Assembly: GCF_963921235.1 (NCBI RefSeq)
Contig: NC_086097.1
Coordinates: 108,874,001-108,938,000, forward strand
Source of the DNA: Mobula hypostoma
Lineage: Eukaryota
Length of the DNA: 64,000 nt
Reading direction: 5' to 3'
Below, piece after piece: positions 23,166 to 52,000 of this stretch (within the stretch, counting starts at the first letter, position 1; each line of letters starts with the position of its first letter). The notes under the pieces are model-generated. The model ran no database searches. It saw only the letters and a list, made by a program, of their open reading frames with translations, and was not told where the DNA came from. Position numbers and translations under genes: made by a program.

Positions 23166-23383
23166 CAAACTTCTTTTAATTAGCAATTCTACTTTCCTCC
23201 ACAGACTCTTATGCAGTTACTTGCACAATAATTCACTTGTAATTTTCTTTGCAAATCAGGAAGCATAGTTTTCTGCCCAAGCTGGCAAATTGACTACTGC
23301 ACAGCCATATGGATCAAACATGCAATAATCAGAATCAGAATCAGAATCACTTCATTACCCAGATGTGAAACATACTAGAATTG

Positions 23384-23574
23384 TTTTGTCACAAAGGTGA
23401 GAAAATTTGCAGATTCTGAAAATCCGAGCAACATACACAAAATGCTACAGGTTAGGCAACATCTGTGGAAACGAGTGAACAGTCGATGTTTTGGGCTGAG
23501 ACCCTTCATCAATTTTTACTTTTTTCCATAGATGCTGCCTGACCTGCTGAGTTCCTCCAGCATTTTGTATGTTG
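23384..23574. mobile_element. Penelope-derived inverted insertion
   Basis: A minus-strand pLTR piece with a decayed hammerhead, followed by a plus-strand piece. ctagaattg is repeated at 23375-23383 and 23575-23583. Confidence 0.65.
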
Positions 23575-24149
23575 CTAGAATTGATTGTGGTTCAGTGCCA
23601 AGCAGAAACCACAGGACAATACAACAGCAGGCAACACAACAGCAACCAGCAATTTTTAAGACGATAGTGCAAACAGCCATGAGCCATGTAGGATTAGCAG
23701 AGTGTTCACGTGCGCAAACATCAATCGTCAAACTTAAATGTGAATGCATGAACAGAATAAATAACTAACAGCAGAACAGAAGAGCAGGAAAGATGATTTA
23801 ACAAATGTTGTGCTGGGACAGTAGGGTATTATTACACCTGAGTGAGTTTTGTTGAGAAGCTGGATAGCTACAGGAAAGAAACTTCGGAGATGACATGTAG
23901 TCCTGGTGGTGTTGGACTTGTGGCATCTCAATTTGGTGAATAGGTGACTGCTAGGTTGGGTAGAGTCAGCAGTAATATTTTCAGCTCTTTTCATTGCTCG
24001 GGTGATGAGCAGGTCTTTTCATGTCATTAGCTGATAGCCAATGATCTCTGCTGAGTGGGCCACTCACCACAACCTGGACTTGGAGAGTGAGGAGGCAGTG
24101 GGAAATCAAACGACAATAGAAGTAGTCACAACACTCTCAATGATGGCTG

Positions 24150-25629
24150 TCTACAATGTCACTGTCTACAGGTGAGGTACCGGAGGATTGGAGAGTGGCT
24201 CATGTTGTTCGGTTGTTTAAAAAAGGATCAAAAAGTAATCCTGGAAATTGTAGGCCAGTAAGTTTAACGTTGGTAGTGGGTAAGTTATTGGAGGGAGTAC
24301 TAAGAGACAGAATCTACAAGCATTTGGATAGACAGGGACTTATTACGGAGAGTCAACAAGGCTTTGTGCGTGGTAGGTCATGTTTGACCAATCTATTGGA
24401 GTTTTTTGAGGAGGTTACCAGGAAAGTGGATGAAGGGAAGGCAGTGGATGTTGTCTACATGGACTTCAGTAAGGCCTTTGACAAGGTCCCGCATGGGAGG
24501 TTAGTTAGGAAAATTCAGTCACTAGGTATACATGGAGAGGTGGTAAATTGGATTAGACATTGGCTCAATGGAAGAAGCCAAAGAGTGGTAGTAGAGAATT
24601 GCTTCTCCGAGTGGAGGCCTGTGACTAGTGGTGTGCCACAGGGATCAGTGCTGGGTCCATTGTCATTTGTCATCTATATCAATGATCTGGATGATAATGT
24701 GGTAAATTGGATCAGCAAATTTGCTGATGATACAAAGAATGGAGGTGTAGTAGACAGTGAGGAAGATTTTCAGAGCCTGCAGAGGGACTTGGACCAGCTG
24801 GAAAAACGGGCTGAAAATTGGCAGATGGAGTTTAATACAGACAAGTGTGAGGTATTGCACGTTGGAAGGACAAACCAAGGTAGAACAAACAGGGTTAATG
24901 GTAAGGCACTGAGGAGTGCAGTGGAACAGAGGAATCTGGGAATACAGATACAAAATTCCCTAAAAGTAGCATCACAGGTACATAGGGTCGTAAAGAGAGC
25001 TTTTGGTATATTGGCCTTTATTAATCAATTGAGTATAAGATATGGAAGGTTATGATGAGGTTGTATAAGGCATTGGTGAGGCCGAATCTGGAGTATTGTG
25101 TTCAGTTTTGGTCACCAAATTACAGGAAGGATATTAATAAGGTTGAAAGAGTGCAGAGAAGGTTTACAAGGATGTTGCCGGGACTTGAGAAACTCAGTTA
25201 CAGAGAAAGGTTGAATAGGTTGGGACTATATTCCCTGGAGTGTAGAAGAATGAGGGGAGATTTGATAGAGGTATATAAAATTATGATGGATATAGATAGA
25301 GTGAATGCAAGCAGGCTTTTTCCACTGAGGCAAGGGGAGAAAAAAACCAGAGGACATGGGTTAAGGTTGAGGGGGGAAAAGTTTAAAGGGAACACTAGGG
25401 GGGGCTTCTTCACACGGAGAGTGGTGGGAGTATGGAATGAGCTGCCAGACAAGGTGGTAAATGCGGGTTCTTTTTTAACATTTAAGAATAAATTGGACAG
25501 ATACATGGATGGGAGGTGTATGGAGGGATATGGTCCGTGTGCAGGTCAGTGGGACCAGGCAGAAAATGGTTCAGCACAGCCAAGAAGGGCCAAAGGGCCT
25601 GTTTCTGTGCTGTAGTTTCTATGGCTTCT
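24150..25629 (+). mobile_element. CR1 family B, 5'-truncated (RT domain, one frameshift)
   Basis: ORFs 24156-25055 (DFSKAFDKV, GVPQGS, FADD) and 25052-25615. atggctg is duplicated (24143-24149, 25630-25636). Confidence 0.95.
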
Positions 25630-28552: not shown

Positions 28553-29306
28553 ATAGATAATCATCTGATGGTATTTAGGCAGGTTATTTTTCATGTTGTA
28601 ATGGTTAAAATGCCCCATAATACAAATGACAGAATTGGGAAATTTATTTTCCAAGTCATAAATGTTATCAGTCAAAGGCCATTGTGCAGATTGAGTGTCG
28701 GCATGAGGGGAATGTAAACACCAGCCAGGGTTACTTACTGCCCATTACACCATTGGCACTTATACCAGTAATGATGTCTTTGGCCATCTTCTCTATTGTG
28801 CTTCAGGAGTGGTTCAGGGTTCTCAGTCGCATGCAGACATAGAAGGATTCTTCCTTGCTGTTTCCATATATATCTTTTGGCCTCAACTTAACCCCCAAAC
28901 CTGGAGAATCGGTGGACCACTTTTAGACTGGCCTCTACCCAGAGGCATGGGTGACCCTACCAAGAGCCTAAGCACAAGGCTCTGGCTCCAGCCAACATAG
29001 TGTCAAAAGGGCATGGCACTAACAGACCCAAGTGCAAGATATAGACACTGAAGTACTAGGGACAGGACTAGGATACAGGGAGATGGCAAGGACATGGACA
29101 GGAAAACCAGGAACCTGGAACAGGACTGGACAAGAGAGCTAGGAGCCTGGGCTTGGACTCCGAGCCAGAGACTGGACAAGGACCCAGTACCTGAGTCTTG
29201 CCTCTGGCTCGGACCCCAGAACTCGGCAAGGACGAGGCTGGAATCTTCAGGCTAGAGACTAGAGATTTGGCTTGGCAAGAGGCTAGAGGCTAAAGGCTAG
29301 AGGCTA

Positions 29307-29471
29307 GAGGCGGCAGTCGTCAGGCTCGCGGCTCGGCAGGAGGCGGCAGTCGTCAGGCTCGCGGCTCGGCAGGAGGCGGCAGTCGTCAGGCTCGCGGCTC
29401 GGCAGGAGGCGGCAGTCGTCAGGCTCGCGGCTCGGCAGGAGGCGGCAGTCGTCAGGCTCGCGGCTCGGCAG
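29307..29471. repeat. 33-bp minisatellite, 5 perfect copies
   Basis: Unit gaggcggcagtcgtcaggctcgcggctcggcag. Confidence 0.97.
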
Positions 29472-29500
29472 GAGGCAAGGCGAGGGTTGGCAGGAGGCCG

Positions 29501-30292
29501 GAGACTTGAGACTTGAGGCGAGGCTGGAGGCTGGAGGCAGGAGACTTGAGGCGAGGCTGGAGGCTGGAGGCAGGAGACTTGAGGCGAGGCTGGAGGCAGG
29601 AGACTTGAGGCGAGGCTGGAGGCAGGAGACTTGAGGCGAGGCTGGAGGCTGGAGGCAGGAGACTTGAGGCGAGGCTGGAGGCAGGAGGCAGGAGACTTGA
29701 GGCGAGGCTGGAGGCAAGAGACTTGAGGCGAGGCTGGAGGCAGGAGACTTGAAGGCGAGGCTGGAGGCAGGAGGCAGGAGACTTGAGGCGAGGCTGGAGG
29801 CAGGAGGCAGGAGACTTGAGGCGAGGCTGGAGGCAGGAGACTTGAGGCGAGGCTGGAGGCAGGAGACTTGAAGGCGAGGCTGGAGGCAGGAGGCAGGAGA
29901 CTTGAGGCGAGGCTGGAGGCAGGAGGCAGGAGACGAGGCGAGGCTGGAGGCTGGAGGCAGGAGACTTGAGGCGAGGCTGGAGGAAGGAGACTTGAGGCGA
30001 GGCTGGAGGCAGGAGACTTGAAGGCGAGGCTGGAGGCAGGAGGCAGGAGACTTGAGGCGAGGCTGGAGGCTGGAGGCAGGAGACTTGAGGCGAGGCTGGA
30101 GGCTGGAGGCAGGAGACTTGTGGCGAGGCTGGAGGCTGGCGGCAGGATACTTGAGGCGAAGCTGGAGGGTGGAGGCAGGAGACTTGAGGCGAGACTGGAG
30201 GCTGGAGGCAGGAGACTTGAGGTGAGGCTGGAGGCAGGAGACTTGAGGCGAGGCTGGAGGCAGGAGGCAGGAGACGAGGCGAGGCGAGGCAG
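29501..30292. repeat. Modular minisatellite (26-34-bp units)
   Basis: Core gagacttgaggcgaggctggaggcag with optional 7-bp modules gaggctg or gaggcag and a +a variant. Confidence 0.95.
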
Positions 30293-30807
30293 GCTCCTCC
30301 TGGGCAGGGCGTGGACCACCACCCGACAGAGGCAAGGGACAGGAAGGGACAGAACCAACCCCAGGTAACAGCAAGACGGCCTGGCTTACCTGGATGGAGG
30401 CAAGGGACAGCAAGGGAGCTGGGTACGGGGTGGCTCCAGGACAAGACTGCAGGCGAGACAAGGTGACAGTTACCAGCAAGACAAGGCAAGGCTTCTGGCA
30501 AAGCAAGGCGAGACGAGAACCTCAGGCGAGGCGAGAGTTACCGGCAAGACAAGGCAGGGCTTCAGGCGAAGAAACAGAAGGCAGAGGAAGGCAAACAAGG
30601 AGTAAGAACAATCCAGCAGTCACACCTGTCTGTCTGTATCTTGTTTTACAGCGGTTGGCCTCCAGCTTAATGGTGCATTACCGCCACCCTCTGCTCCAGA
30701 ATGTGCACTAGACATACATTCTAAATCCCTTCACCCAATCTCTCTCACACACACACACTTCACCCTCCCATCTTTGACCATCCTAGTATCCTATTCCTGT
30801 TTATTCG

Positions 30808-33800
30808 TCATATTCTATAAAAAACCCCTGTACCTCTTAAAAACGCTAAAAATACCCGGACTTGTGCTCTCTCACCCATGCCCAGCAACCCTTTTAATGT
30901 GAATTCCTGCATCCCCAACTCCCTTAATTTATTTCTCATCATCTCTCTCTGTATCCCATACTTCCTGCAACTCAGAACTACATGTTCTACTGACTCCTCT
31001 TCCTGACATTCCTCACACAATCCTGTCTGGTGTTTCCCTATCATTTTCAATGTTTTGTTTAATGCACAGTGCCCCAGCCTTAACCTAGTCCACACAGTTT
31101 CCTCTCTTCTGTTTCCATTACCTACCCTAGTACCTGCAACACTCTTTTGTATTTGATATAAATGCCTCCCTTTCCCCTCCCTGTCCCATCTTTCTTGCCA
31201 CATTCAGTTGACCTTTTCCCAGATTACACACTTAACCTCTGCTTTACTGACACTAATGTGCATTTCCACATTTTCTTTCTTTAACGCCCTCTTTGCCAAC
31301 TCATCCACCCTCTCATTGCCCTTCACCCCTACATGTGCTGGAACCCATAGAAATTTTACCTGACCTCCCTGATTTGCAATTCTTGTAACTAACTGAAGGA
31401 CTTCATAAAGTACATCTTGCCAACTGTTTGTGTGAAAAGACCTTAAACTTGCTAGAACTGAGGATGAATCTGAACATATCAATGCTTTGGCTTGTCTGGC
31501 TTTCTGCACCCATTGCAACGCAACCAACACTGCCAGCATCTCCACTGTAAACACCCCTAACTTATTAGATGTTCTTCTGCTGATTCCAATTTCTTTTGCT
31601 GGTATTACCACCCCAAACCCTGTCACTCCTGTTTCAGGTTCCTTCGCAGCATCCGTATAAATGTGAGTATAATCACTATACTTTTCCATCACATGACAGT
31701 TAAATGCATTTACCAAATCTGTTTTATATCTTTCTTTCCTTTTTACCTCCAACAAATGCCAGTCTATGTCAGGCCATACAAGCTTCCATGGAGCTACAAC
31801 TGGATAAACTACTGAAGGACTTATCCTCAGATCAAATACTCCACATTCTTTCACGGTATCATTCCCTACCCAACTAAAGGTATCCCTCTGAAACCTCCCA
31901 TTTTCCCAGCACTCCTGCAACACTCCTTTAGTAGGGTGAGAATCATTGTGCCCCTGCAAGTTAGCCCAGTAGTTTGCCATCAGGTGCATCCTTCTTAGTT
32001 CCAAAGGCATTATTCCCATTTCTACCTGTAGGGCTGACACTGGTGACGTTTTAAAAGCCCCACTGCACACTCTCAAGGCCTGAGCCTGAATCACATCCAG
32101 TTTCCTTATAGAGATCTAGCTGCTGATCCATATACTATATTTCCATAATCCAATACAGATCTTACTAAAACCACATACATTCTCTTCAAAGCTGAACAAC
32201 TTGCTCCCCATTCCCTACCAGTCAAACATCTCATCACATTTATTATTTTTTTACATTTCTCCTCAACTTTCCTGATGTGGTCTACCCATGTTAATCGTGA
32301 ATCAAATATAACTCCCAGAAATTTAAATGATGTAACCCTTTCTAATTCAACCCCATACATCCTTAATTTCTTCCCTACCTCAACCTTTTTCCTGGTAAAA
32401 AATACAGTTTGAGTTTTATCTACTGAAAATCTACATCCCCAGTCATAACCCCACTCCACCACTTCATCAATTGCTTCTTGTAGTTTCCTGATTATATGGT
32501 CCATGTTCCTACCTCTTTTCCACAAGGCCCCATCATCCGCAAACAGTGACCTACCGATATCCACTGGTACCTTTGTGAAGACATCATTGATCATAATGAT
32601 GAAAAGTAACGGGCTAATCACACTACCTTGAGGTGTGCCATTTTCCACTATGTACTGTTTTGATAATTCTGATCCAATCCGAACTTGAATTTTTCTACCA
32701 AACAAAAAATCTTTAATCCAATTAAAACTCTTCCACCAACCCCCATCTTGTGCAGTTTAATTAATAATCCTTCCTTCCACATCATATCATAGGCTTTTTC
32801 AATGTCAAAGAACATTGCCACTACTGACTCTCTATTTGCCTGGGCCTTCCTTACTTCAGTCTCTAACATAATCACTGAGTCCATGGAATTCCTTCCCTTT
32901 CTAAAACCACTCTGATAACTTGCCAGCATTCCCCTTTTCTCAAGCTCATATGATAACCTTTCTGTTATCATCCTTTCCATTATCTTACATATACTTGATG
33001 TTAATGCAATTGGTCTGTAGCTAGTGGGTTTTGACAGATCCTTGCCAAGCTTCCTTATTGGAATTACTACTGCTTCTTTCCAGGCACTTGGTAATCTTCT
33101 CTCCTCCCACACTCTTATAAAAAATGCAGCAACTTCAAGAGCGCTCCTTCTCCTAGATTTTTTAGCATCACAGAGCATATCAGATCTTTCCTTGGGGAGG
33201 CTGGTCTCGATCTCTTTACTGCTCTCACCATTTCTGCTAATGTAAATGGATCATCAATTATATCATCTGTTCCTTCCCTCCTGCTTAACACACCTGGGTG
33301 TTGGCTCATTATTCTTTCCCTTCTTCTTCTCCCTTCTTCAGACAAATTTTCTGAACTGTGTATCAGTACAAATGACTTGGCCATGACCTCAGCCTTATCC
33401 CTACTGGAGACTGCAGTTTCCTCCTCAGATATCATTACTGGATATTCCCATTCCCTTCTATCTCCTTCCATCCTCTTAATCATTCCCCATATCTCTCCCA
33501 CAGGTGTTGTTCTTCCTACCTTGTCGCAAAAACTCCTCCAACTTGCCCTTTTAGCTTGATGTATAGTTCTTCTCACCACTGCCTGTGCTTTCTTATATTG
33601 AACCAAATGCTGCATATTATGGGTTCTTTTAACTAGCCTGAATGCTCTATTTCTGTTTTTTTACAGCCTGACAACATTCCTCTGTCCACCATGGTACCAG
33701 TTTTCTATTCATCCTATTTTTACTCCTAGGTATAGATCCTTCTGCTGCCATGATAATTGCTGAAGTCACCTGACTGTTTAATTCATCTACATTTCCAGAA

Positions 33801-34582
33801 ATATCAATCTTTGTCAACCCTTCTTCACTCAACTTCTGGAACTTACCCCAATCAGCTTTTTCAAACACCCACTTTGGGGTTCCGCCACCTGGTCTTACTT
33901 CAACTCTTTCACTCACTGAACACAAAACTGGGTAGTGATCACTGCCTACTGTTGAAGCAGTCCAAACTCCCCAGTTACTAATGCCAGCCAAGGTATTAGA
34001 CACTAACGTAATATCTAACACTGACTCAGTTCCTGTTGTTATATCTATCCTTGTGCCGCTACCATCATTCATACACACCAAATCCCTTTCTTCCATCAAA
34101 TCTTCAATTACCTTTCCATTTGGATCTGTAATCTGATCCCCCCATATTGTGCTATGAGCATTGAAATCTGCACACCACACTACTTTATGTCTGTTTTGTC
34201 CTTGTATCTTTAATAGGCTGTCCAAATCCAACCTTTTACATGGATTGTAGTAGTTAATTATAACCACTCCCTCCCCTCTCTCCCACACTTCCACCACTAT
34301 GTATTCCTGATCATCTCCTTTTTCCAGTACCCTATGTGGTATACCTTGCTTGATTAACATAGCACAACCCCCTCCTCCCGCTAGATTTCTATCTTTCCTT
34401 ATCATTGTATACCCATATACCACAAAGTCTAAAGTTGGTTTCAACCAAGTTTCCTGAATACACACTACATCTGGTTTTACAACCATTTCTTTAATAAAGT
34501 GCTTGAATTCCTGGCTATTGGCCAGTAAGCTCCTTGCATTCCATTGTAAAAGAATCACCATAATTAGTATTAACCAACACAT
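30808..34582 (-). pseudogene. Nimb/I ORF2 (APE-RT-RNase H-CCHC) with several frameshifts and one in-frame stop
   Basis: LQWNARSL, IQETWL, DFNAH, GSDHYP, YRPIALTS, DIEKAYD, GTPQGSVISP, LFADD, IYTD..E..SDS..WVPAHVGVKGNERVD and CEEC..H..C. Stop codon at 31204-31206. Confidence 0.92.
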
Positions 34583-35896
34583 GACACTTCCTGGCTTGAC
34601 TGATTACTGAGGTTCTCCCTCACTTCCTCCCATGTCAGTCCTACTAACCCTAAATGGTTTACTGCTGCTTTTACCACCAGCTGAATTTTGTCACTTTTTG
34701 ACTTTACCTCAGCCGTACTATTAATCACTCCTGCAATGAATGTTACTAGAGCCTTTTTGTCTACATAATCCTGTCATTTGTTCTTTGTTGCATCTCTCGT
34801 ATCCCTATTGCTCCCTGTTCATTACGAGCATTATTCTGTTCTCTTGACATTCTTACAGCTTCTGCATAAGTGATCTTTTCACTCTTATTTCTTGAATTTT
34901 AGTCTCCCGTCTGACAACCTCACACCCATTATATGCAACATTATGAGCTCCTCCACAATTGCAGCATTTTGGTTGAACTCCTGTTCCGCACTTTCCATAT
35001 TCATGATCACCCCCACATCTAGCATATCTCCTCTGCTTTTTACAGTTTTTAGCCACGTGTCCAAACCTTTGACAATTATAGCACCTCAGTGGCTTTGGCA
35101 CATACACCCTCACTGGGTAACTCATGAAACCCAGGAACACCTTCCTTGGCACTCTTTCTTCTTCAAATTCAATCAATACAGATTCACTTTCCTTTTTCAC
35201 TCCCTCCTTTGTTGTTTTCAGTCTTTGAACATTCATTACTTTCCCTCCTTTGATATTCCTCTTTATCTCCTCCATATTTATACTCATTGGTATCCCCGTG
35301 ATCACTCCTTTACAACCATTGTTTTGTGTTCCCACCCTCCCAGTGTATTCCACCTTGCATTTTCCTATCTCTTTTAGCTTGAGTGCTTTCTCAAGTCGTT
35401 CCTCATTCGCACATCTTACCAATAAGTTGCCATCATTAAGGACTTTTGCAAATACTATTTCCCCTATCTTATTTGTCAGAGTTGTTGTTAGCACAAATGG
35501 GTTAATTTTCTACATATGTCCCTGAGCCTTCTCATTAAACCTAATTATGACAACACCTCCTCTCTGAGCTTGTTCATCTTCCTCACTTTCAGAGCTTTCT
35601 CCACAATCATTTCTTATTCTTTTATTCCCTTTGTCTTGGTTTTTATTCATCCGACCCCTCACTACCTCCTCATTCCCTTTATTTCTCCCTTCACAATAAT
35701 CCACCTCTCCCCAGCTGCCTACCTCTGGTCCCAAGTCTCTAACCCTCTCCTTCTCCACTTTCTTTCCCTCAACCCCGCCTCTTATCTTGTCCACCATTAC
35801 CGGACCCACACGACCCCCTCCCAGCAATTTCCATTCCTTCCCCACTCTCTTTCCCTCAACAGGTTCCAAACCACATTCACGCATCAAGCAAAACAC
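34570..35896 (-). pseudogene. Nimb/I ORF1 (gag-like, three CCHC knuckles), frameshifted
   Basis: CYNCQRFGHVAKNC, YARCGGDHEYGKC (first Cys lost) and CCNCGGAHNVAYNGC in ORF 34853-35494. The N-terminal part is in 35510-35896. Confidence 0.88.
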
Positions 35897-38989: not shown

Positions 38990-40109
38990 TCAGAATCTTT
39001 TGAGAGAACTGTGCTAATATTATGCCTGATATTGAAGTGCAAGGATTTCTCCATTTGAAATTAAATGGGCCTCCAGTATGATAATGAGGAGGAAGGCTTG
39101 AAGACCTGGCCTGTTAGCAAAAGAGATAGGAAGAGGGGAAGAAAAGTTCTGCTCAGGTTGTCCTATCCCCCAAAATCACAGATCTACAGGCTCTTCAGAG
39201 ATCAACTGAGATCATCCATCTCCCACAGCAAATTCAAGCTATAGGGTGTGACGAGAATACACATAAAATTAAGATGTTTGCTGGCCTGGGTTAGCATCAG
39301 TGACATTAGCAAGTGGTCTGCCACCTGCCCTCAGGGGAAGGAGAGATAAGGAACAATGGAGCAGCGTCTGGAGATGTGTAATGAAGGGACGTGGGAGAGA
39401 GAGCTGTCTGGAGCGGCTCCCCCTTTGAGCTCTGAACTGTTTGAAGTGGTGGACAGGCGATACCCCAGCAGGGGGATAAAAAGGGACCGGTTCGCTAAGG
39501 ACAGACACACACGCCACCCGAGGTAACGAGACCCTGGAAGCGGTACGCTTCTCACGAGTCGGTGAGAGGTACCGGACAACGGCCAGGGTAGAAAGGTACG
39601 ATCAGCGGGAACCCGGTGTGTGTCCGCCCTTGCCTGGGTGCCGGGTTCACTGCAGAGGATTGACCGCATCTGGAGGAGGGGTCACAGTCGGTGACCTCAG
39701 GTGACATCACCAAGGACCCGCCCAAAAGTTGCTTGTGAGCAATCTCGCCGGTCTGTGAGTGAAGCCGTTTGAATGATCAGTTGTTCCTGTTCTATCTCTC
39801 TCTTCCCCAACGTTGTCCATCGCCATGGCAACGATTACTGCGAACTGAACTACTAACTGGACTGAACTTTGAGTCACTTTGAAATTTGGTCATTTACCCC
39901 TAGACAATGATAGAGCTTGATTGATGCTGTTATCTTAATTCTGTGCACATGTGTGTTTATCATCGCTGAACTGTTGCATTTATTATCCTTTCGATTACTG
40001 TGTTGCTTATTTCTTTAATAAAACTTTCTTAGTTCTAGTACTCCAGACTCCAACTGAGTGATCCATTTCTGCTGGTTTGGCAACCCAGTTATGGGGTACG
40101 TAACATAAG

Positions 40110-40127
40110 TGGGGGCTCGTCCGGGAT
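40110..40127 (+). promoter_or_regulatory. Primer-binding site, tRNA-Pro
   Basis: tgggggctcgtccgggat, a perfect 18-nt match to the canonical tRNA-Pro PBS, 4 nt after the LTR. Confidence 0.95.
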
Positions 40128-40203
40128 TTTGAACGCTAAATTTGGGACGGAGTAAATTGATTGGGTTAAAATTCCCGAAAGAAAGAAAAGACAAACAGCA
40201 GAA

Positions 40204-43080
40204 ATGGAGGCTGAGGAATTTATAAAGGCGCCAACCTTGGAGGCATTAGAGGATGCCAGGAAATCGGAATTGATAGCTGTGGCCAAACGGTTGAATCTTG
40301 CTAAGGTGAAGTCGACAATGAGGAGAGAGGAGATACACAGAGCTATTGTAGAGCACTATGTATTTAAAGGTGTGTTTCCCCAAGGCGAGCTGGGGGTGGT
40401 GTCTATTGAAAAACCTGCTGGAGACGCGGTACAGGTACAGCTTGAAAAACCGAGACTCGAGCACGAGTTCCGGGTACGACAGTTGGAAAGAGAAGAGAAA
40501 GAGAGAGAGAGACAGTTAGAGAGAGAAGAGAAAGAGAGGGACAGACAGTTAGAGAGAGAGGAGAAAGAGAGGCAATGGGAGCGAGAAGAGAGAGGGAAAC
40601 AGAGGGAAAGGGAATTTGAGCTGGAGAAGTTAAAGATAAGGGCTGAGCAGGGGCTCGTGCCGAACCAAGGTGGAGGGTTCCAGGCGACCCAGGAGGTTAG
40701 GCTGGTTCCCCCATTTGACGATACCGACGTGGATCGGTACTTTCTCCACTTCGAAAAAGTGGCTATAAGTCAGGACTGGCAGAGGGATAAGTGGGTTGTT
40801 TTACTTCAGAGTGTACTGAAAGGGAAGCCCCAAGAAGCTTACTCAGCTTTGTCCGTGGAAGATGCCCAGAGGTATGAGGTGGTGAAAGAGGCCATCCTCA
40901 GGATTTATGAGTTGGTCCCGGAGGCATACTGGCAGAGGTTCCGGAATGCGAGGAAGCAGTGGGACCGCACGTATTTGGAGTTTGCTCGTGAGATGCAAAC
41001 ATATTGTGAGCGTTGGTGCGCCTCAAAAGGGGTAGAGGGGGATTATGACAGACTGCTGCAGCTGATTCTGATTGAGCAGTTTAAAGGTTGTGTCCCTGAG
41101 GGTATGAGACCCTACCTCGATGAGAAAGAGGCAGCCACGTTAGCCGCAACTGCTAAGTTAGCGGATGAGTATGCGTTAACGCATAAAATGAAGTTTGCCC
41201 CGAGTAAAGGCTACCAGAAGGGTAGTCAGGACGGCGGGGAGAGTCCGCCGGAAAAGTCAGAAAGTAAGCCGGGGACTAGTGAAAAGGATAAGGTAGACCG
41301 GGAGCAGTCTGGTAGGAAGTCTCCTGGGGTCGTCTGTTATAATTGTGGGAAAGCCGGACACTTTGCGTCCAGGTGCTTTGTCCCAAGGAAGGAGACGGGG
41401 AAAGGAAAAGCGGAAATTTGGAATGGCTGTATCGAGCTGTTAAGCCAACCGCTAGGGAAGGACAGGTCTGAAAAAGTCCAGGAAGGGCGCGAGAGGTTTA
41501 TCTCGGCCGGACTGGTGTCAGTGAAGGAGAGGTTAAAACCAGTTCCAGTGCGGATCTGGAGAGACACGGGAGCGTGTCAGTCACTAATACTGAAGAGTGT
41601 ATTAGAGTTTAGCTCAGAGACCCAGACTGGGGAGGTAGAGGTCAAAGGTGTTGGGGAAGGGACAGAGTCAGTCCCTTTGCACCAGATACACTTACAGAGC
41701 AACCTGGTCTCTGGACTAGTCACGATCGGGGTGAGGTCTGAATTACCGATGAAAGACGTGGAAGTCTTGCTCGGTAATGACATCGCCAGAGGAATCGTGT
41801 TCCCAGTCGTGAGATTGACAGGTCAGCCTGCCAACAGTGAGGCCCCGCCCATGGACTCACAGGTTCATCACCGGCCCGCGATAGTGAATTTAGCTGAAAC
41901 ATTTCTGCCAACCTTGTATGAGACAGGGTGTAGTGAGATAAGAGGTCGTGAGGGAGCTAGGACAGACGTAGCAGTAGCCAGGAAAGAATTTGTGCAGACG
42001 CAGGAGCGAGACGAGGGGCTGATGGTTTTGGCAGAGACCGCTCTCTCTGACACAGCCTTGACAAGCTATTGTGTGGAGGAGGAAGTGCTCAGGAAGAAAG
42101 GGAAATCAAGTACAGTATCCGCAGATGAGGAGTGGGGGGTGGTGCAAAAGAGCTATGGGGATGAGGTTTTTAACATGGCCCACGAGGTACCCCCCAGTGG
42201 ACATTTTGCGGTGCTGGAGGAAACAGTTGGTGGAATCATGAAAGAGATTTACCGGCTGCCCAGGGGGAAGAATGTTATTGATCATGACCGACGCGAACTG
42301 AGACGGTCACCAGCTTTTGATATGCTAACAAACCTAGTCGGTGTTAGCGTGGAAATCAATGAAGCTAGGGGCCCCCTGATAAGAGGAAAAAAACATTTTG
42401 AAAAGATTAGTATGGGATCGATCAGATGGGAGAAGGCTATTGTTTTGGCCAGGTCTACTGATAAGGTCTCTCCCTTAATCCCCGAACAAAGCGAATCTTT
42501 AGCAGAAGTAATTAAACGACTCGCACCTGTGTGTTTGATTGCTCCGAGGAAATGCAAAGAACTGGGACGTTGGGTGATGTCTGTTACAATAGGGCGGCCT
42601 AGTAAACAACACCCATATTTTTTGAGTAATTCAGTGACTAAAGGGCTGATGAACACAGAGGTGTGTATTGGCAATTTAATACGGCTGTCTGAAGCCAGCT
42701 TGATAGTGAACCTTGAAAAAAATGAATTCGGCCACACGAAGGTCACTTACCTGGGAATTGAGGTGACACAGGGGCAGCTGGCAGTGATGCAAGCTACAGT
42801 GCAGGCTATCGCTGACCTCCCAACCCCGACAGACAAGAGGGCCCTCAGAAGGCTCTTGGAGATGGTGGGGTACTGCAGGAAGTTTTGCAATAACTCTGCG
42901 GTCAATACCCGTCCCCCTCCTACTAAGCCCTTGCGAGAGAAAACTGAGTCGGAATGGGACGACCCTTGTTATTGTGGTCCGGGACAAAACCAAATGAGAG
43001 GCTACATTGGTCACAATTCATCAGTGTTTTTGGCCACTATGAAGTTTGCTGAGTTGGAGCCTGGTCTAAGGGATTATTAA
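40204..43080 (+). CDS. Gag (coiled coil, SCAN-like capsid, CCHC) - aspartic protease - vestigial IN/RT polyprotein, 958 aa
   Basis: YELVPEAYWQRFR..LILIEQF..LADEY (SCAN-like), CYNCGKAGHFASRC, RDTGACQS and LLGND. Then AHEVPPSGH (integrase zinc-finger remnant) before QHPY, LIVNLEKNEFG..VTYLG and VGYCRKFC (RT remnants). No YxDD, RNase H or DDE core. Confidence 0.9.
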   Translation: MEAEEFIKAPTLEALEDARKSELIAVAKRLNLAKVKSTMRREEIHRAIVEHYVFKGVFPQGELGVVSIEKPAGDAVQVQLEKPRLEHEFRVRQLEREEKERERQLEREEKERDRQLEREEKERQWEREERGKQREREFELEKLKIRAEQGLVPNQGGGFQATQEVRLVPPFDDTDVDRYFLHFEKVAISQDWQRDKWVVLLQSVLKGKPQEAYSALSVEDAQRYEVVKEAILRIYELVPEAYWQRFRNARKQWDRTYLEFAREMQTYCERWCASKGVEGDYDRLLQLILIEQFKGCVPEGMRPYLDEKEAATLAATAKLADEYALTHKMKFAPSKGYQKGSQDGGESPPEKSESKPGTSEKDKVDREQSGRKSPGVVCYNCGKAGHFASRCFVPRKETGKGKAEIWNGCIELLSQPLGKDRSEKVQEGRERFISAGLVSVKERLKPVPVRIWRDTGACQSLILKSVLEFSSETQTGEVEVKGVGEGTESVPLHQIHLQSNLVSGLVTIGVRSELPMKDVEVLLGNDIARGIVFPVVRLTGQPANSEAPPMDSQVHHRPAIVNLAETFLPTLYETGCSEIRGREGARTDVAVARKEFVQTQERDEGLMVLAETALSDTALTSYCVEEEVLRKKGKSSTVSADEEWGVVQKSYGDEVFNMAHEVPPSGHFAVLEETVGGIMKEIYRLPRGKNVIDHDRRELRRSPAFDMLTNLVGVSVEINEARGPLIRGKKHFEKISMGSIRWEKAIVLARSTDKVSPLIPEQSESLAEVIKRLAPVCLIAPRKCKELGRWVMSVTIGRPSKQHPYFLSNSVTKGLMNTEVCIGNLIRLSEASLIVNLEKNEFGHTKVTYLGIEVTQGQLAVMQATVQAIADLPTPTDKRALRRLLEMVGYCRKFCNNSAVNTRPPPTKPLREKTESEWDDPCYCGPGQNQMRGYIGHNSSVFLATMKFAELEPGLRDY

Positions 43081-44880
43081 TAACACGTGTAAAAGGAACA
43101 GAAAATGCGATGACTGTCTGTCAAGGTGTTGACAAGCTTCAAACTCTCTGTATTAGCCAAATAACTGATAAAGATGCATATTTGTGTGTGTATCAAATAA
43201 TGTAGTCATGTTTGTAATTTTTACCTCCCGGTAAAAATCCTTTAAAAGGGGGGAAGTGTGACGAGAATACACATAAAATTAAGATGTTTGCTGGCCTGGG
43301 TTAGCATCAGTGACATTAGCAAGTGGTCTGCCACCTGCCCTCAGGGGAAAGAGAGATAAGGAACAATGGAGCAGCGTCTGGAGATGTGTAATGAAGGGAC
43401 GTGGGGGAGAGAGAGCTGTCTGGACCGGCTCCCCCCTTTGAACCTTGAACTGTTTGAAGTGATGGACAGGCGATACCCCAGCAGGGGCATAAAAAGGGAC
43501 CAGTTCGCTAAGGCGACACACACGCCACCCGAGGTAACGAGACCCTGGAAGCGGTGCGCCTCTCACGAGTCGGTGAGAGGTATCGGACAACGGCCAGGGT
43601 GGAAAGGTACGATCAGCGGGAACCCGGTGTGTGTCCGCCCTTGCCTGGGTGCCGGGTTCACTGCAGAGGATCGACCGCAATTGGAGGAGGGGTCACAGTC
43701 GGTGACCTCAGGTGACATCACCAAGGACCCACCCAAAAGTTGCTTGTGAGCAATCTCGCCGGTCTGTGAGTGAAGCCGTTCTGAATGATCAGTTGTTCCT
43801 GTTCTATCTCTCTCTTCCCCATTGTTGTCCATCGCCATGGCAACGATTACTGCGAACTGAACTACTAACTGGACTGAACTTTGAGTCACTTTGAAATTTG
43901 GTCATTTACCCCTAGACAACGATAGAGCTTGATTGATGCTGGTATCTTAATTCTGTGCACATGTGTGTTTATCATCGCTGAACTGTTGCATTTATTATCC
44001 TTTCGATTACTGTGTTGCTTATTTCTTTAATAAAACTTTCTTAGTTCTAGTACTCCAGACTCCAACTGAGTGATCCATTTCTGCTGGTTTGGCAACCCAG
44101 TTACGGGGTACGCAACAAGGGCCTTTCATTATCAGCCATATTGTTCAAAGAAGATATTATTTGGTGAAAGCACCATAGTGCCTGAACTCACCAGTGAAAC
44201 TGTGAACCCAAGATTTAAGGCCCAAGAGTTGAATTGGTAATCTGGTAGTTGAGGCCTGTTGGCTGGAGCCCCAGATCTGCAAATCCACTGAGCTAGTTGA
44301 AGGCCAATGTCTGTGTGTCCACATCTGAATCCAAGTCTAAATCTGGGTCCACAAGAGACTGGAGGCTGATGACTACTGTTAGGTGTTGTAACTTCAAAAC
44401 ATTAAACAAATTCAAAGGAGGACACTGGAGTCTGAAATGTGAGTTTAACTTTGTGTTTACTTTAAACGAGGTGCATTCGTATCACATGTCAGCTTGATGA
44501 CATATGCAATTTATGTATTTATACACATAGCCCGTATTGAATTATTTAAATGAACAAGAATGCTTATTCAAACAATATACAGTGTATAAGATGACTCCAA
44601 TATCACTGAAATATTAAATGCACAACACTCCTCTCTGCTTTGCTATAAACTCCAACTCAATAGAGAATGCATCTCAACTATACACCCAGTGTACTCTGTA
44701 ATACAACTACTATACAGACATCCACAGCATAGTAAATTTTAAATTGTCCCAATTCAGGACCAAAGATTTAATCACTGCGGAGGCTTTCTTACATCTTTCC
44801 TGACAAGGGAGATCACTCTGTTTGGCAGGTGAGACTTGTGGCTGTGAAAACAATCTCAGGTTCTGGGGCCTCTGGCCACC

Positions 44881-45375
44881 TTACTTCTTCCATTTTCTTC
44901 TTTTAGTTTGTGCATCTTAATCTTTGGAATGTGAATTTAGTTCACCGGAGCATTCTCTTATTAATTCTTTTATTGCTCCCTTAACAATGTGATCCCTCTT
45001 CTTGGTTTCTTCATCCACATCACCTGACAAATCCTCTGTTTTTGTATCTCCATTGACTCCTTTCTTTTTGGCCTTCCATTCATCCAGTTGGGCTTTGGGC
45101 TTTGCATCTACTTTTACCAGCAGCTTTATGTCTCCCACATGAAGTTCATGCAATAACCTTTATAGCACAGAGAGTTCTTTATATTTACAAAAGCCGAATG
45201 CTTGCAACTTTCCTGAAGCTCCTTACTATATCAGAGGCATTCTCAGATATATTGCCTATAAAAGCAGTTGTAGTCAGACCGCTGCTTTGTCACTTTCATG
45301 ATTCCTCTGAGCAGAATGGTCCTTCCTTGAGTCAATATGCTTTCGAACCAGAGGCACAGAGGTTGGCACCAACAT
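44881..45375 (-). pseudogene. RBM25: Intronless RBM25 fragment (RRM region) inside the LTR element
   Basis: Manual translation: MLVPTSVPLVRKHIDSRKDH, GLTTTAFIGNISENASD, GASGKLQAFGFCKYKE, RLLHELHVGDIKLLVKVDAKPKAQLDEWKAKKK..DEETKKRDHIVKGAIKELIRECSGELN. This matches recalled vertebrate RBM25 (VLVPTVSMVGKHLGARKDH..TTTVFVGNISEKASD..GASGKLQAFGFCEYKE..LLVKVDAKTKAQLDEWKAKKK). Frameshifts, stops and small deletions are present. Confidence 0.92.
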
Positions 45376-45903
45376 CTCTTTGTCCTCTGTTAGACAACTG
45401 TGGATGGATCTCCAATCAAGCTGTAGTTGTCTTAGCTAATCATGTCCCCACAATGCTGGCCTTACTGTTTTTAACACATACAAACCCAATGTGGTTTGTT
45501 GGTTGCACCCTTTATTTCACTATTACAAATGTTATTCCCACAGGACCTATTTTTCTCCAGTATAACTTCTTAGTTGGATAGTTTCAGGGTTCAGTTTTGT
45601 ATCTTTGAAATGTTGTTCAAACTGTACTTGTGGAATGACTGAAACAGCCGAGATAGTGTCCAATTCCATTTTAATTTATTTTCCAGTCTCTTCTGGTGTA
45701 AGCCATATTGCTTGTCTCCTGTTAGTTTTCACAATACAAATCTCAAAACTAGCCAGTCCTGTGTCACTCTCATCATTTTCAGATTTTTCATTAACAGCTT
45801 GCAGAGTAGTGCTCTTTTTGAAATTGCAACTGGACTTTATAGTTTATACTTTATACTTTTCTCTTCCCTGTGCAGTCCTTTTATTTTTGTCTGCCCGACA
45901 TAA

Positions 45904-46543
45904 GTAGGTCAAATATGACAGCAGAATATAGCATTAATGGTAAGACTCTTGGCAGTTTAAGAGCTGAGAGATAATGTTACAGCTTTATAAGGCCCTGGTC
46001 AGACCCCACTTGGAGTACTGTGCTCAATTCTGGTTGCCTCACTACAGGAAGGACGTGGAAACCATAGAAAGGGTGCAGAGGAGATTTACAAGGTTGTTGC
46101 CTGGATTGAGGAGCATGACTTATGAGAATAGGTTGAGTGGACTCAGCCTTTTCTCCTTGGAGCGACAGAGGATGAGAGGTGACCTGATAGAGGTGTATAA
46201 GATGATGAGAGGCATTGATTGTGTGGATAGTCAGAGGCTTTTCCCCAGGGCTGAAATGGCTAGCACAAGAGGGCATAGTTTTAAGGTGCTTGGAGGTAGG
46301 TACAGAGGAGGTGTTGGGGGTAAGTTTTTTACGCAGAGAGTGGTAAGTGTGTGGAATGGGCTGCTGGCAACGGTGGTGGAGGTGGAAACGATAGGGTCTT
46401 AAGAGACTCCTGGATAAGTACTTGGAGCTTAGTAAAATAGAGGGCTAGGGGTAAGCCTAGGTAATTTCTAAGGTAAGGACATGTTCAGCACAGCTTTGTG
46501 GGCCAAAGGGCCTGTATTGTGCTGTAGGTTTTCTATGTTTCGA
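45904..46543 (+). mobile_element. CR1 3' fragment inserted in the Mag-like gag
   Basis: ORF 45974-46402 (LVRPHLEYCAQFW..) with a ttctatg tail. Confidence 0.9.
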
Positions 46544-48049
46544 TACTCTTCACATGTGTCCTGCTTTGTTGCATTTGTTTTGTCTTTAAATCTGCATTGG
46601 TCTGGTGTATGTGGCCCCCTGCCACAATGGTAACACAATTTGTTTGACCAAGTTGGTTTCTGTTTAGACTCTGCAGTTTTGTTCACGGTCACTTTCATTG
46701 CTGACTGCAACTCAATTGCATCTCTGTTTTGCTGTTTCCATTGATACAGTAAATTCAACTACTCTCTTAAATGTGTCTTGTACTTCAGTTAGGAACTGTT
46801 GGAATACTTTTTGTAAGATTCCATAAACTAAATGATTTCTCAGTGCATCATTATGCCCATCATTGAACTGTAAGTGCTCAGACAATCTCTTCAATTCAGC
46901 CACACATGCTAAAATGGACTTTCCTTCCTTTTGATTCTGCTTATGAAACCTAAAGCATCGTGCAATCAACAATGATTTTTGTTCTAAGTATTCCTGCATT
47001 ACTTTCACAATATCAGCAAAGCTCATTTCTTCTGGTTTGGTTGGAGCAGTTAGATATTGAAGTACACTGTATGTATTAAACACAATGCACTCAGGAAAAA
47101 TGGTTTCTCATTGGCTGTATTATCTGTTTTTGCAATACTGTTCAATTAGCTCAGTATACATGAGGCAGTTACCCAATGAACAATCAAATGCATCTATCTT
47201 TCTAAAGTAGCCAGCCAGCTCCAATTTTTTGATGATTATCACCTGTTTATGAGCCCTGAATTCTTCTATATTCTGCCTTTTCATAAAACTCTATGGTTTC
47301 TGTACATACTATGCTGTTTTTCACTTCCCTGTTCTCACTGCGCTTTAAAAAAAAATTGAACGTCTCGCTGCAGGTTGGTATCCATCTCGGGTTACTTTTA
47401 GGAATACCACATCGCCACTGTTATGTCTTGTAACTTCAAAACATTAAACTAGTTCAAAGGAAGACACGGGAGTCAAAACTGAGAGTCTAACTACAGGTTA
47501 CTTTAAGTGAGGCATGCGCGGATCACCTGATAGTATGATGACGTATGTAATTCATGTATTTATAAATATAACCATAATGAATTATTTAACTACCAGGAAT
47601 GTTTAATCAAACAATATATACATGAGATTACTCAAATATTATTGAATCATTAAATACACAACAAATACAAAATGTCCTGGGGTTGTTATTTTGATGCTTA
47701 TTGTGTTCTGTTTTGCTCTGCTGAGCATTGTGGACATTCTATGTAGCCAATGGAATGTGTGGTGACCCTTGGGTGTGTTGGTTGGTAACACAAATGACAT
47801 ACTTCACTGTATATTTCAATATGCAGATGACAAATAAACTTGAATCTGCAAGGTTCTTGAATTTTCTCCTGAAGGCTGAGATTTCTGGATAAGTGTATCC
47901 AGTACCCATTCAGCAATCCCCTGTGTGTCAGCATATAGGTAGGATAGAGCAAGATAAACACAATATAGCCAAGTTTGTCTTTTATGTTTTACTTGGAGAT
48001 ACACTGCTTTCTAGCCACACCACACAGCACCCACCGATTGAACCCTAAC

Positions 48050-49026: not shown

Positions 49027-52000
49027 TAGAAACATATTAACATAGAAAACCTACAGAACGATACAGGCCCTTCAGCCCACAAAGCTGTGCCGAACATGTC
49101 CTTACCTTAGAAATCACCTAGGGTTACCCATAGCCCTCTATTTTTCTAAGCTCTATGTACCTATCCTGGAGTCTCTTAAAAGACACTATCGTACCCGCCT
49201 CCACCACTGTCACTGGCAGCCCATTCCACGCACTCACCACTCTCTACGTAAAAAACTTACCCCGACATCTCCTCTGTACTTACTTCCAAGCACCTTAAAA
49301 CTGTGCCCTCTTGTGGCAACCATTTCAGCCCTGGGAAAAAACCTCTGAATATCCACGTGATCAATGAATCTCATCATCTTATACATCTCTATCAGGTCAC
49401 CTCTAATCCTCTGTCGCTCCAAGGAGAAAAGGCCGAGTTCACTCAACCTCTTTTCATAAAGCATGCTCCCTAATCCAGGCAACATCCTTGTAAATCTCCT
49501 CTGCAACCTTTCTATCATTTCCACATCCTTCCTGTAGTGAGGCAACCAGAACTGAGCATAGTACTCCAAGTGGGGTCTAACAAGGGTCCTATATACCTGC
49601 AACATTACCCCTTGGCTCCTAAACTCAATCCCATGATTGATGAAAGCCAATGCACCATATGCCTTCTTAACCACAGAGTCAATCTGCGTAACATCTTTGA
49701 GTGTCGTATGGACTCAGACCCCAAGATCCCTCTGATCCTCCACACTGTCAAGAGTCTTACCATTAATACTATATTCTGCCATCATATTTGACCTACCAAA
49801 ATGAACCACTTCACACTTGTCTGGGTTGAACTCCATCTGCCACTTCTCAGCCCAGTTTTGCATCCTATCTATGTCTTGCTGTAACCCCTGACAGCCCTCC
49901 ACACTATCCACAACACCCCCAACCTTTGTGTCATCAGTAAATTTATGAACGCATCCCTCCACTTCCTCATCCAGGTCATTTATCAAATCATGAATAGTAG
50001 GGATCCCTGAGGCGCACCACTGGTGACCAACCTCCATGCAGAATATGATTCATCTACAACCATTCTTTGCCTTCCGTGGGCAAGCCATTTCTGGATTCAC
50101 AAAGCAATGTCCCCTTGCATATCATGCCTCCTTACTTTCTCAATAAGCCATGCACGGGGTAGCTTATCAAATGCCTTGCTGAAATCCATATACGCTACAT
50201 CTACTGCTCTTCCTTCACCAATGTGATTAGTCACCTCCTCAAAAAACTCAATAAGGCTCGTAAGGCATGACCTGCCTTTAACAAAGCCATGCTGACTGTT
50301 CGTAATCATATTATGCCTCTCCAATCCTGTCTCTCGGGATCTTCTCCATCAACTTACCAACCACTGAAGTAAGACTCACTGGTTTATAATTTCCTGGGCT
50401 ATCTCCACTCTCTTTCTTGAATAACGGAACAATATCCGCAACCCGCCAATCCTCCGGAACCTCTCCTGTCCCCATTGATGATGCAAAGTTCATAAACCAG
50501 AGGCTCAGCAATCTCCTCCCTCAGTTCCCATGGTAGCCTGGGGTACATCCCATCGGGTTCCAGCGACTTATCTAACTTGATGCTTTCCAAAAGTGCCAGC
50601 ACATCCTCTTCCTTAATATCTACATGCCCAAGCTTTTCAGTCCACTGTAAGTCATCCCTATAATCGCCAAGTTCCTTTTCCATAGTGAATACTGAAGCAA
50701 AGTATTCGTTAAGTACCTCTGCTATCTCCTCCAGTTCCATACACACTTTTCCACTGTCACACTTGATTGGTCCTATTCTCTCACATCTTATCCTCTTGCT
50801 CTTCACATACTTGTAGAATGCCTTGGGGTTTTCCTTAATCCTGTCCGATCTCTATCATTAACTAGTTTTTTGAACCTTTTGTAAGCTCTTCGTTTCTCTT
50901 GAAAAGATTTTCAACAACCTTTGTACACCACGGTTCTTGTACCCTACTATCCTTTCCCTGTCTCATTGGAACGTACCTATGCAGAACTCCATGCAAATAT
51001 CCTTTGAACATTTGCCACATTTCTTCTGTACATTTCCCTGAGAACATCTGTTCCCAATTTATGCTTTGAAGTTCCTCCCTAATAGCCTCATATAGCCCCT
51101 TATTCCAATTAAACGCTTTCCTAACTTGTCTGTTCCAACCCCTCTCCAAAGCTATGGTAAAGGAGATAGAATTGTGATCACTATCCCCAAAATGGTTTCC
51201 CACTGAGAGACCTGACACCTGACCAGGTTCATTTCCCAATACCAGATCAAGTACAGCCTCTCCTCTTGTCGGCTTATCTACATATTGTGTCAAGAAACCT
51301 TCCTGAACACACCTAACAAACTCCACTCCATCTAAACCGCTCGCTCTAGGGAGACGACAATTGATATTTGGAAATTAAAATCTCCCACCACAACAACTCT
51401 TATTATTACACCTTTCCAGGGTCTGTTTCCCTATCTGCTCCTCGATGTCCCTGTTATTATTGGGTGGTCTATAAAAAACACCCAGTAGAGTTATTGACCC
51501 CTTCCTGTTCCTAACTTACACCCACAGAGACTCCGTAGACAATCCCTCCATGACTTCCTCCTTTTCTGCAGCTGTGACACAGTCTCCGATCAACAGTGCC
51601 ATGCCCCCACCTCTTTTGCCTCCCTCCCTGTCCTTTCTGAAACATCTAAAGCCTGGCACTTGAAGTAACTATTCCTGCCCCTGAGCCATCCAAGTCTCCG
51701 TGACGGCCACAACATCATAGTTCCAAGTACTGATGCATACTCTAAGCTCATCTGCTTTGTTCATTAAAATAGACACATCTCAAACCATCCTTGCATTAAA
51801 ATAGACACATCTCAAACCATCTGAATGAGCGTGTCCCTTCTCTATCACTTGCCTATCCTCCCTCTCACACTGTCTCCAAGCTTTCACTATTTGTGAGCCA
51901 ACCGCCTCTTCCTCTGTCTCTTCAGTTTGGTTCCCACCCCCCAGCAATTCTAGTTTAAACTCTCCCCAACGGCCTTAGCAAACCTCCCCACCAGGATATT

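Follow-up and report, generated by a model that had tools for sequence, protein, structure and literature searches.

The closest described systems are the LTR-mediated retrocopies of Tan et al. 2016 (PMC5131818), in which, according to the available sections of that paper, an internal, doubly truncated and intron-free piece of mRNA replaces part of an open reading frame between two LTRs. Such retrocopies carry neither poly(A) nor a target-site duplication (TSD) at the level of the insert, are often sense and in frame with the element, and can be re-copied as non-autonomous elements; in one family, the return to the element took place close to exon-exon junctions. Each is present at a single site or a few sites (18 for nine fly retrocopies), and no cartilaginous fish is among the cases in those sections. 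Maize Bs1, also treated there (PMC5131818), is likewise an LTR element that took up spliced host sequence, with switch points common to all copies and with secondary retroposition, but is found in a plant, derives from three parental genes and reaches 1-5 copies. In vertebrates, CrocERV31-nectin3 and CrocERV29-KIT-ligand (PMC4299795) are LTR elements that carry host mRNA, have multiplied and are shared across species, nectin3 taking the place of a viral gene in CrocERV31. In the available text, these are true ERVs with near-complete cargo ORFs under purifying selection and 6-9 reported copies, in which env was replaced or nothing was lost. Koala recKoRV1 (PMC6112702) combines the 5' part and the 3' end of an LTR element around a swapped middle and was spread again in trans to numerous loci, where it has target duplications, but its insert is the retroelement PhER rather than host mRNA, and the sections available describe it as very young, with 12-14 copies per animal.

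The locus described here lies in a window of 64,000 nucleotides from Mobula hypostoma (the whole stretch of DNA analyzed). It is a decayed minus-strand Ty3/gypsy-type LTR retrotransposon (44377..47663) in which 515 nt of spliced RBM25 take the place of about 2,780 nt of pol (RT, RNase H and integrase). It differs from the retrocopies of Tan et al. in the accessible sections (PMC5131818) by a cargo amplified 10^2-10^3-fold and common to three organisms, and from the crocodilian captures (PMC4299795) by the loss of RT, RNase H and integrase. We regard it as probable that the swap occurred by template switching, likely once, that the hybrid likely spread as a non-autonomous element, and that its cargo is most likely a passenger. 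The earlier note on this sequence, which had proposed a transduced host gene yielding a Gag-protease-RRM fusion, was thus partly supported.

All parts of the element were on the minus strand. As displayed by LTR alignment, the 5' LTR (245 nt, 47419..47663) and the 3' LTR (251 nt, 44377..44627) were both bounded by TG...CA, and the end at 44377 was further marked by a depth step and varied flanks. The flanking letters (47664..47668 on the 5' side, 44372..44376 on the 3' side) formed a 5-bp duplication agreeing at four of five positions (GTATT / GTAGT). A decayed motif at 47407..47418, with TGG one base past the 5' LTR, is presumably the primer-binding site (PBS), given established LTR-element anatomy, and a 14-nt polypurine tract (PPT, 44628..44641) preceded the 3' LTR. 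The paired TG...CA LTRs, decayed PBS, PPT and duplication within the 4-6 bp range, together with a gag-protease homologous to elements ordered PR-RT-RH-IN, placed the element in Ty3/gypsy. The ends of the element were exactly those given in the earlier note, and the order it gave (gag, protease, RBM25, a pol-tail-like stretch, PPT, LTR) was confirmed by alignments. No second copy of the element was found within the 64-kb window.

The LTRs were identical at 198 of 245 alignment columns, with a K2P distance of 0.226 (242 ungapped columns; 24 transitions, 23 transversions). With the rate of 7e-10 per generation from an epaulette-shark pedigree, as given in the available part of its source (PMC10587355), this distance would correspond to 1.6e8 generations, which is implausibly old; an absolute age is therefore withheld and the copy is simply called old.

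The 5' part of gag (46545..47218), ending at the first zinc knuckle, contained stops and a frameshift; residues 1-218 of P0152, a full-length gypsy polyprotein, matched 47218-46579 (tblastn, E 4e-38). The end of gag and the aspartic protease (45400..45903) followed, interrupted by stops and a frameshift and with a substitution in the active-site motif (P0152 residues 201-383 on 45933-45397, tblastn E 5e-21; best phmmer matches E 5e-29 and 2e-28). Pfam on the window's own pieces found no RRM or gag family, and protease (RVP) at E 0.14 only; a word-indexed search with the read-through protease returned none of 117 candidates, and the exact 24-nt protease-end pattern had no match in metagenome contigs. 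Between the two parts of gag lay a 640-nt piece of a LINE, presumably CR1 (45904..46544, plus strand), 88% identical to 49039-49625 and resembling other LINE pieces in the window. This LINE 3' piece, opposite in orientation, was inserted into gag later and is separate from the RBM25 capture.

According to its Pfam domains, P0152 is a single-ORF gag-PR-RT-RH-IN protein, and its residues 384-1322 had no tblastn match inside the element. RT is absent from this copy, and the pol core was missing at exactly the insert site, as the earlier note had claimed; the RBM25 segment stands in for part of the ORF and is not an insertion into an otherwise continuous element. Downstream, a stretch at 44642..44884 was assigned to a remnant of the integrase C-terminal tail and the 3' UTR. 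Its local similarity to gypsy C-termini is weak; of 18 comparisons, the three best had shuffle counts of 0, 2 and 3 out of 500.

The captured segment was identified as RBM25, in agreement with the earlier proposal, by 81% identity of 44917-45156 to the sevengill shark RBM25-like protein XP_067833824 (E 4.7e-28). The protein search passed 155 of 210 candidates, and the named proteins among the 120 matches listed were RBM25, RRM-domain or hypothetical proteins; a metagenome-contig search covering 2 of 64 parts gave one RBM25 locus from 576 candidates. The RBM25 match ended at about residue 202 of 216 in P0122 (about 270 of 836 in P0006). The segment at 44885..45375 comprised coding exons, which we take to be exons 4-7 in human numbering, encoding the RRM and a basic tract. 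Although the whole RRM (P0122 residues 52-120) falls within the captured span, Pfam recognized it in the shark protein and not in the read-through of this copy; here 51 nt of the RRM near 45225 were absent, which other copies retain.

The host segment was intron-free. The genomic RBM25 locus (L001) showed an acceptor directly before the exon starting N-S-R-P and a GT donor directly after K-K-E-D, and the exon 6/7 junction, whose acceptor is equivalent to window position 45049/45048, was passed without an intron, as the earlier note had suggested checking. Further junctions were probably crossed too, judging from isoform ends. The acceptor point was bridged by 10 of the 24 DNA contigs listed, which extend at least 31 letters to either side of it and show 32-45 differences each from the window. 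Capture of spliced host mRNA in place of pol was thus supported.

The capture extended from 45399 to 44885, in sense orientation. Its first 24 nt (45376..45399) encode an eight-residue linker, SCLTEDKE, which comes from a host RBM25 exon extension seen only in shark-type isoforms and is joined without an intron to the exon that follows. The ungapped BLOSUM62 score of the linker was 21 against the eight residues before VLVPT in P0122, and from -5 to +2 against the equivalents in four gypsy sequences and in four bony-vertebrate RBM25 sequences, and only one of 126,542 8-mers in the other proteins retrieved matched as highly. The linker was therefore rejected as element sequence, which sets the start of the capture at 45399 and its length at 515 nt instead of the previously estimated 495 bp or so. 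The single reading frame announced at the 5' junction was real, with the junction itself having been placed 24 nt too far downstream.

This extension was found in all three chondrichthyan-type sequences (P0002, P0122, P0123) and was absent from 147 of the 150 RBM25-like proteins examined. In P0123 it follows the usual exon end and begins with Val-Ser, so that the 5' end of the capture falls in sequence that is apparently intronic in the usual isoform. The main rival reading, which we hold to be unlikely, is that a copy of the element became joined in the genomic DNA to the beginning of RBM25 intron 3, in the manner of retroviral oncogenes, its read-through transcript using the donor at the extension end, splicing into exons 4-7 and switching template once, at the end of exon 7, back to the element, with later spread as in our preferred reading. 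A start inside a Val-Ser-initial segment is compatible with a GT-AAGT donor that was read through; the joining of that segment to the following exon, which isoform X2 shares, and the rarity of the segment among RBM25-like proteins also fit. However, its presence in every chondrichthyan-type sequence, and in a contig of organism A guessed to be RNA (record 19) that tracks the window into the extension as far as 45391 before diverging, indicates that the extension may be a common host isoform, for which no special route is needed. The GTAAGG after the last exon could include three intron bases, as from a partly spliced template, but only GT(A) is common to the intron starts seen (L001; the Val-Phe read-through in P0002).

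At the 3' side, the last captured base coincided with the end of the exon as L001 defines it, and GTAAGG follows (about 5% by chance of position). Host sequence gives way to element sequence between 44885 and about 44872, the latter a position with loose ends. That the match should stop so exactly could be expected of splicing, in cis or in trans, that joined the donor of RBM25 exon 7 to an acceptor in the element RNA, with no polymerase jump. Such a junction is very improbable, however: the GAA-rich exon end is an easy site for chance microhomology, the bases that follow are donor-like, unlike those after an acceptor, and an apparent private deletion in the tail of this copy, 12 nt downstream, blurs the junction. 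An exon end on one side and intronic-looking sequence on the other nevertheless both fit the splicing-based alternatives, and template switching is the likeliest route of capture, not the sole one. The position of the 5' end inside the extension led to the rejection of a circRNA or exon-block origin, in which both insert ends would be exon boundaries.

No poly(A) or AATAAA followed the insert and no TSD surrounded it, and both LTRs were kept; the earlier description of the insert as sense, without poly(A) or TSD, held at the locus. The longest word common to the surroundings of both junctions was 4 nt. LINEs are abundant here, and one did enter the gag of this copy, so that a LINE-made RBM25 retrocopy in pol, followed by deletion of pol, of the 3' part of the retrocopy and of its poly(A), and then by spread, was considered. 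It is hardly credible, as the insert has neither an mRNA 3' end with poly(A) nor a duplication of its own, and deletions would have had to remove about 570 RBM25 codons, the UTR and about 2.8 kb of pol precisely up to the borders of the insert, yet preserve its sense orientation and the frame at both junctions.

Under the preferred template-switching reading, an RBM25 transcript would have been co-packaged with element RNA, and reverse transcription would have switched onto it inside the shark-type extension and back to the element at the RBM25 exon end. The product would have been inserted by the element's integrase, with target duplication at the LTR ends. Later copies, presumably of a single origin, were probably mobilised in trans by the enzymes of intact relatives, possibly aided by Gag made in cis, and their cargo would be without function.

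On a 1.7-kb stretch of the element, DNA runs of three organisms placed 25,208 of 29.7 M contigs (X1), 23,498 of 34.2 M (X5) and 19,892 of 21.3 M (X15). Variant rows within RBM25 reached 120-126 contigs, the maximum countable being 128. Peak summed depth of RBM25 was 0.90-1.13x that of the protease, and its median depth 0.33-0.68 of the protease median; in X1, RBM25 bins had 97-3,381x (median 961) the depth of 15.4 of the contig matching this locus's own flank, summed contig depth not being equal to copy number. Being intron-free and covered about as deeply as the protease, at 10^2-10^3 times single-locus depth, the RBM25 piece is amplified in many dispersed copies, and the RBM25-carrying hybrid likely reached hundreds or thousands of copies.

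The non-autonomous family proposed earlier thus stood as regards a massively multi-copy cargo in three organisms; the varied flanks at 44377 and a shared missing codon accompany it, while no contig among the matches listed (31 of about 71,800 pieces) bridged either host/element junction. In one contig of 1,262 nt (record 12), the sequence flanking the RBM25 piece to the left and to the right was unaligned. In X15, 131 contigs followed the protease to 45400, where the capture starts, and then continued into one common non-window sequence (agreement 0.75); these are likely helper elements. The codon missing here at 45016, present in the shark protein, was carried by 491 of 652 depth units in X18, a run only guessed to be RNA, and by 95 of 1,599 (X1), 269 of 7,917 (X5) and 142 of 1,488 (X15) in DNA. 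Such a low DNA share would follow if most copies go back to a single capture and could partly reflect gap placement at adjacent positions. X18 placed 956 contigs on the stretch, protease included, with DNA carry-over possible. No look-alike of the element was found in the other genomes compared.

Selection of the cargo is a question of function and would be possible whichever way the RBM25 segment was captured. A Gag-PR-RRM-tail polyprotein with an RRM that aided packaging, export or splicing control of element RNA or interfered with host RBM25 would accord with this copy keeping the frame across both junctions (by chance, 1 in 9), with capture of the whole RRM and its retention in other copies, and with the purifying selection reported in the available text for crocodilian ERV cargoes (PMC4299795). 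We consider it quite unlikely: none of about 300 retrieved proteins joined protease and RBM25 motifs, decay was even across gag, protease and cargo, and short non-autonomous derivatives can outgrow their parents without useful cargo, as the accessible sections of PMC5131818 indicate. With 12 in-frame stops summed over five segments, frameshifts, the LINE insertion and the RRM deletion, this copy is decayed, as previously described, and is no functional Gag-fusion retrogene; a Gag-PR-RRM product remains a proposal. A bolder reading, in which a cartilaginous-fish gypsy lineage serially transduces RNA-processing or silencing genes, here through intron-3 read-through, and the in-frame RRM boosts RNA handling or blunts host control up to thousands of copies, is decidedly doubtful.

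No RBM25-carrying element was described in the titles and abstract openings listed on RBM25 with retrotransposons, RBM25 in sharks or LTR retrocopies in cartilaginous fishes. The main text of a 2026 preprint on cartilaginous-fish retrocopies, whose supplements may list RBM25, names it 0 times and, in the part available, places SUDS3 among the top retrocopy parents. The family may already be in repeat libraries (Repbase, Dfam), unnamed. The mechanism is already published, and the new aspect is scale, a known kind of gene capture being unusually large: documented animal and plant captures, in the sources available, have a handful to about a dozen copies, against an apparent hundred- to thousand-fold here.

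Part of the gene for a conserved splicing factor was thus apparently amplified inside a non-autonomous gypsy family common to several related species. For annotation, such families would inflate the counts of 'processed pseudogenes' credited to LINEs. Hundreds to thousands of copies would be enough to date the burst, to build a tree and to examine head-on the question of cargo selection by LTR elements, a test normally impossible with few copies.

The RBM25 element (44377-47663, minus strand) was bounded by two LTRs at 47419-47663 and 44377-44627, both TG...CA on the minus strand, and the ends of the element lay exactly where the earlier note had placed them. The pair aligned at 198 of 245 columns (K2P 0.226), with a 5-bp duplication at the element flanks (4 of 5 bases matching), a PBS-like motif following the first LTR and a purine tract preceding the second. 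In the DNA-type run X1 the bin that begins at 44371 marked a rise in summed depth from 62 to 81,478, consistent with the LTR end, and contigs of X18, a run guessed to be RNA, departed from it at 44376-44377 and continued in sequences that varied among them (agreement 0.43-0.58). One X1 contig spanned the LTR end at the window locus with 0 differences over 213 nt.

Gag and protease were matched on the minus strand by P0152, a full-length gypsy polyprotein of 1,322 residues in a single ORF with the Ty3/gypsy order PR-RT-RH-IN (residues 1-218 at 47218-46579 and 201-383 at 45933-45397), while P0152 beyond residue 383 had no match inside the element. About 2,780 nt of pol were replaced by 515 nt. 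Before the PPT the pol C-terminus survived as a weak remnant: of 18 comparisons, the top three were equalled by 0, 2 and 3 of 500 shuffles. A 640-nt CR1-like LINE piece lay antisense within gag (45904-46544; 88% identical to a copy at 49039-49625) and was missing from the earlier description of the element. The window copy is dead, and its reported decay was borne out by 12 stops in the five segments counted, by frameshifts and by substitution in the active-site motif of the protease.

Several other repeats occupied the window. A much younger LTR element occupied 39246-44081 (plus strand), its LTR blocks separated by about 4.0 kb and sharing 90-99% identity; about 300 nt lay between its end and the neighbouring 3' LTR of the RBM25 element. 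A single open frame of 974 codons (40156-43080) encoded SCAN-like and zinc-knuckle domains; the RT-like match was only short, so the pol of this element looks internally deleted. A GC-rich gypsy-type element (17672-21765, minus strand) held pieces of gag, protease, RT, RNase H and integrase, spread over several frames. The LINE at 31204-35509 (minus strand) combined an ORF1 bearing a zinc knuckle with an endonuclease, an RT-like part and RNase H, and was unlike the CR1-like LINEs dominating the window. A compound GC-rich tandem array (29274-30555) combined a 33-nt unit repeated five times (100% identical) with a different 33-nt unit repeated 26 times. Outside the window, the fish gypsy protein P0155 (Metynnis hypsauchen, 652 aa) kept gag, protease and integrase tail with most of RT and RNase H gone, an internal deletion as in the RBM25 element but without cargo, or a gene-model artefact.

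The identification of the insert as RBM25 held, with sevengill shark as the best match (81%, E 4.7e-28) and bony-vertebrate RBM25 at 55-66% among the matches listed, a contrast that suggests a cartilaginous fish as host. The insert corresponded to about residues 7-202 of P0122, a shark isoform, and spanned the RRM interval (52-120) in full; it lacked the proline-rich start, RE-rich middle and PWI domain. In the window copy 51 nt of the RRM were absent; contigs carrying 118 letters in place of the window's 67 (one in X1, two in X5, one in X18) and the many DNA contigs ending at 45223-45225 indicate that other copies retain this stretch.

The RBM25 piece was derived from spliced RNA, as had been claimed. 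In L001, a genomic RBM25 locus from another vertebrate, an acceptor precedes N-S-R-P and a GT donor follows K-K-E-D; the window passed the equivalent acceptor at 45049/45048 without an intron. Partial and alternative proteins in the annotation suggest that other junctions are crossed as well: 13 end at G-K-L-Q and 13 insert residues after it. The exon numbers used here (3-7) follow the human gene.

The 5' junction had been misplaced, the eight codons between protease and VLVPT being host RBM25. Aligned with the eight residues that precede VLVPT in shark isoform X2 they scored 21, a score matched by 1 of 126,542 other 8-mers; the equivalents of four gypsy and four bony-vertebrate sequences gave -5 to +2. 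A four-residue difference between isoforms X1 and X2 at exactly this join points to an intron with two acceptors, and the window join was of the X2 type. This puts the start of the capture at 45399, within an extension specific to the lineage, and adds one more crossed splice junction. The extension, found in 3 of 150 RBM25-like proteins, all within the shark cluster, comes in P0123 after the usual exon end and begins Val-Ser, as a read-through donor would. The shark-type proteins P0002, P0122 and P0123 carried an in-frame insertion of 16-20 residues before the RRM-containing exon, absent from the other 147, which may reflect alternative splicing specific to the lineage. In organism A, an RNA-guess contig (record 19) tracked the window to 45391 and then diverged, a weak hint that the host makes the extended isoform.

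The capture is probably LTR-mediated, by template switching under the model of Tan et al. 2016 (PMC5131818). An RBM25 transcript would have been co-packaged, and reverse transcriptase would have moved onto it after the protease and returned to the element where exon 7 ends. Shortened but with its LTRs, PBS, PPT and gag, the element would then have integrated and subsequently been copied in trans. Read-through transduction is a minor possibility, favoured by a capture that begins in sequence seemingly intronic in the usual isoform. The RBM25 match ended at 44885, exactly at the L001 donor point, followed by GTAAGG; a stop on an exon end (about 5% coincidence by position) would suit splicing at the 3' junction, which we nevertheless regard as very unlikely. 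Slightly less credible still is a LINE retrocopy trimmed by deletions. By all tests applied, the element behaves as an LTR-mediated retrocopy, and its insert is not a LINE-type processed pseudogene.

The in-frame 5' junction reported earlier kept its frame, shared by protease, extension and exon 4, and lost its location, now 45399; the last RBM25 codons were also in frame with the tail-remnant codons (both junctions in frame, 1 in 9 by chance). These joins and the complete RRM interval slightly favour a cargo useful to the element, but decay was even across the copy and no fused protein appeared among about 300 retrieved, making such a use doubtful. The window copy does not qualify as a functional fusion gene.

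The intron-free RBM25 piece is amplified. Over the 1.7-kb stretch, 19,892-25,208 contigs were found in three DNA-type runs (organisms A, B and G), with up to 120-126 distinct contigs at RBM25 positions (countable maximum 128). Among the matches listed, 10 of 24 DNA contigs ran across the junction of exons 6 and 7, with 32-45 differences from the window in each. Peak depth on RBM25 was 0.90-1.13 times the protease peak and median depth 0.33-0.68 times the protease median, and X1 RBM25 bins stood at 97-3,381 times single-locus depth; as summed contig depth is no copy number, only an order of hundreds to thousands is claimed. No contig bridged a host/element junction among 31 listed of about 71,800 pieces. 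The window lacks, and DNA contigs largely lack, a codon present in the shark protein and in most X18 depth, which suggests one origin for the copies. In X15, 131 contigs followed the protease as far as 45400 and then continued in a shared non-window sequence; they may represent uninterrupted relatives able to supply enzymes.

None of the literature listed, judged by title and start of abstract, dealt with an RBM25-carrying gypsy family. Among the known cases compared here, Bs1 has 1-5 copies (PMC5131818), crocodilian ERV captures 6-9 (PMC4299795) and recKoRV1 12-14 per animal (PMC6112702), far fewer than the hundreds to thousands, as an order only, of the RBM25 family. This scale of amplification is the new aspect of the RBM25 capture. 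A 2026 pseudogene preprint (bioRxiv 10.64898/2026.06.26.734816) gives MIPOL1, SUDS3, SDF2L1, SLU7 and ZNF276 as top cartilaginous-fish retrocopy parents, and MIPOL1, SDF2L1, SLU7 and ZNF276 may be LTR cargo.
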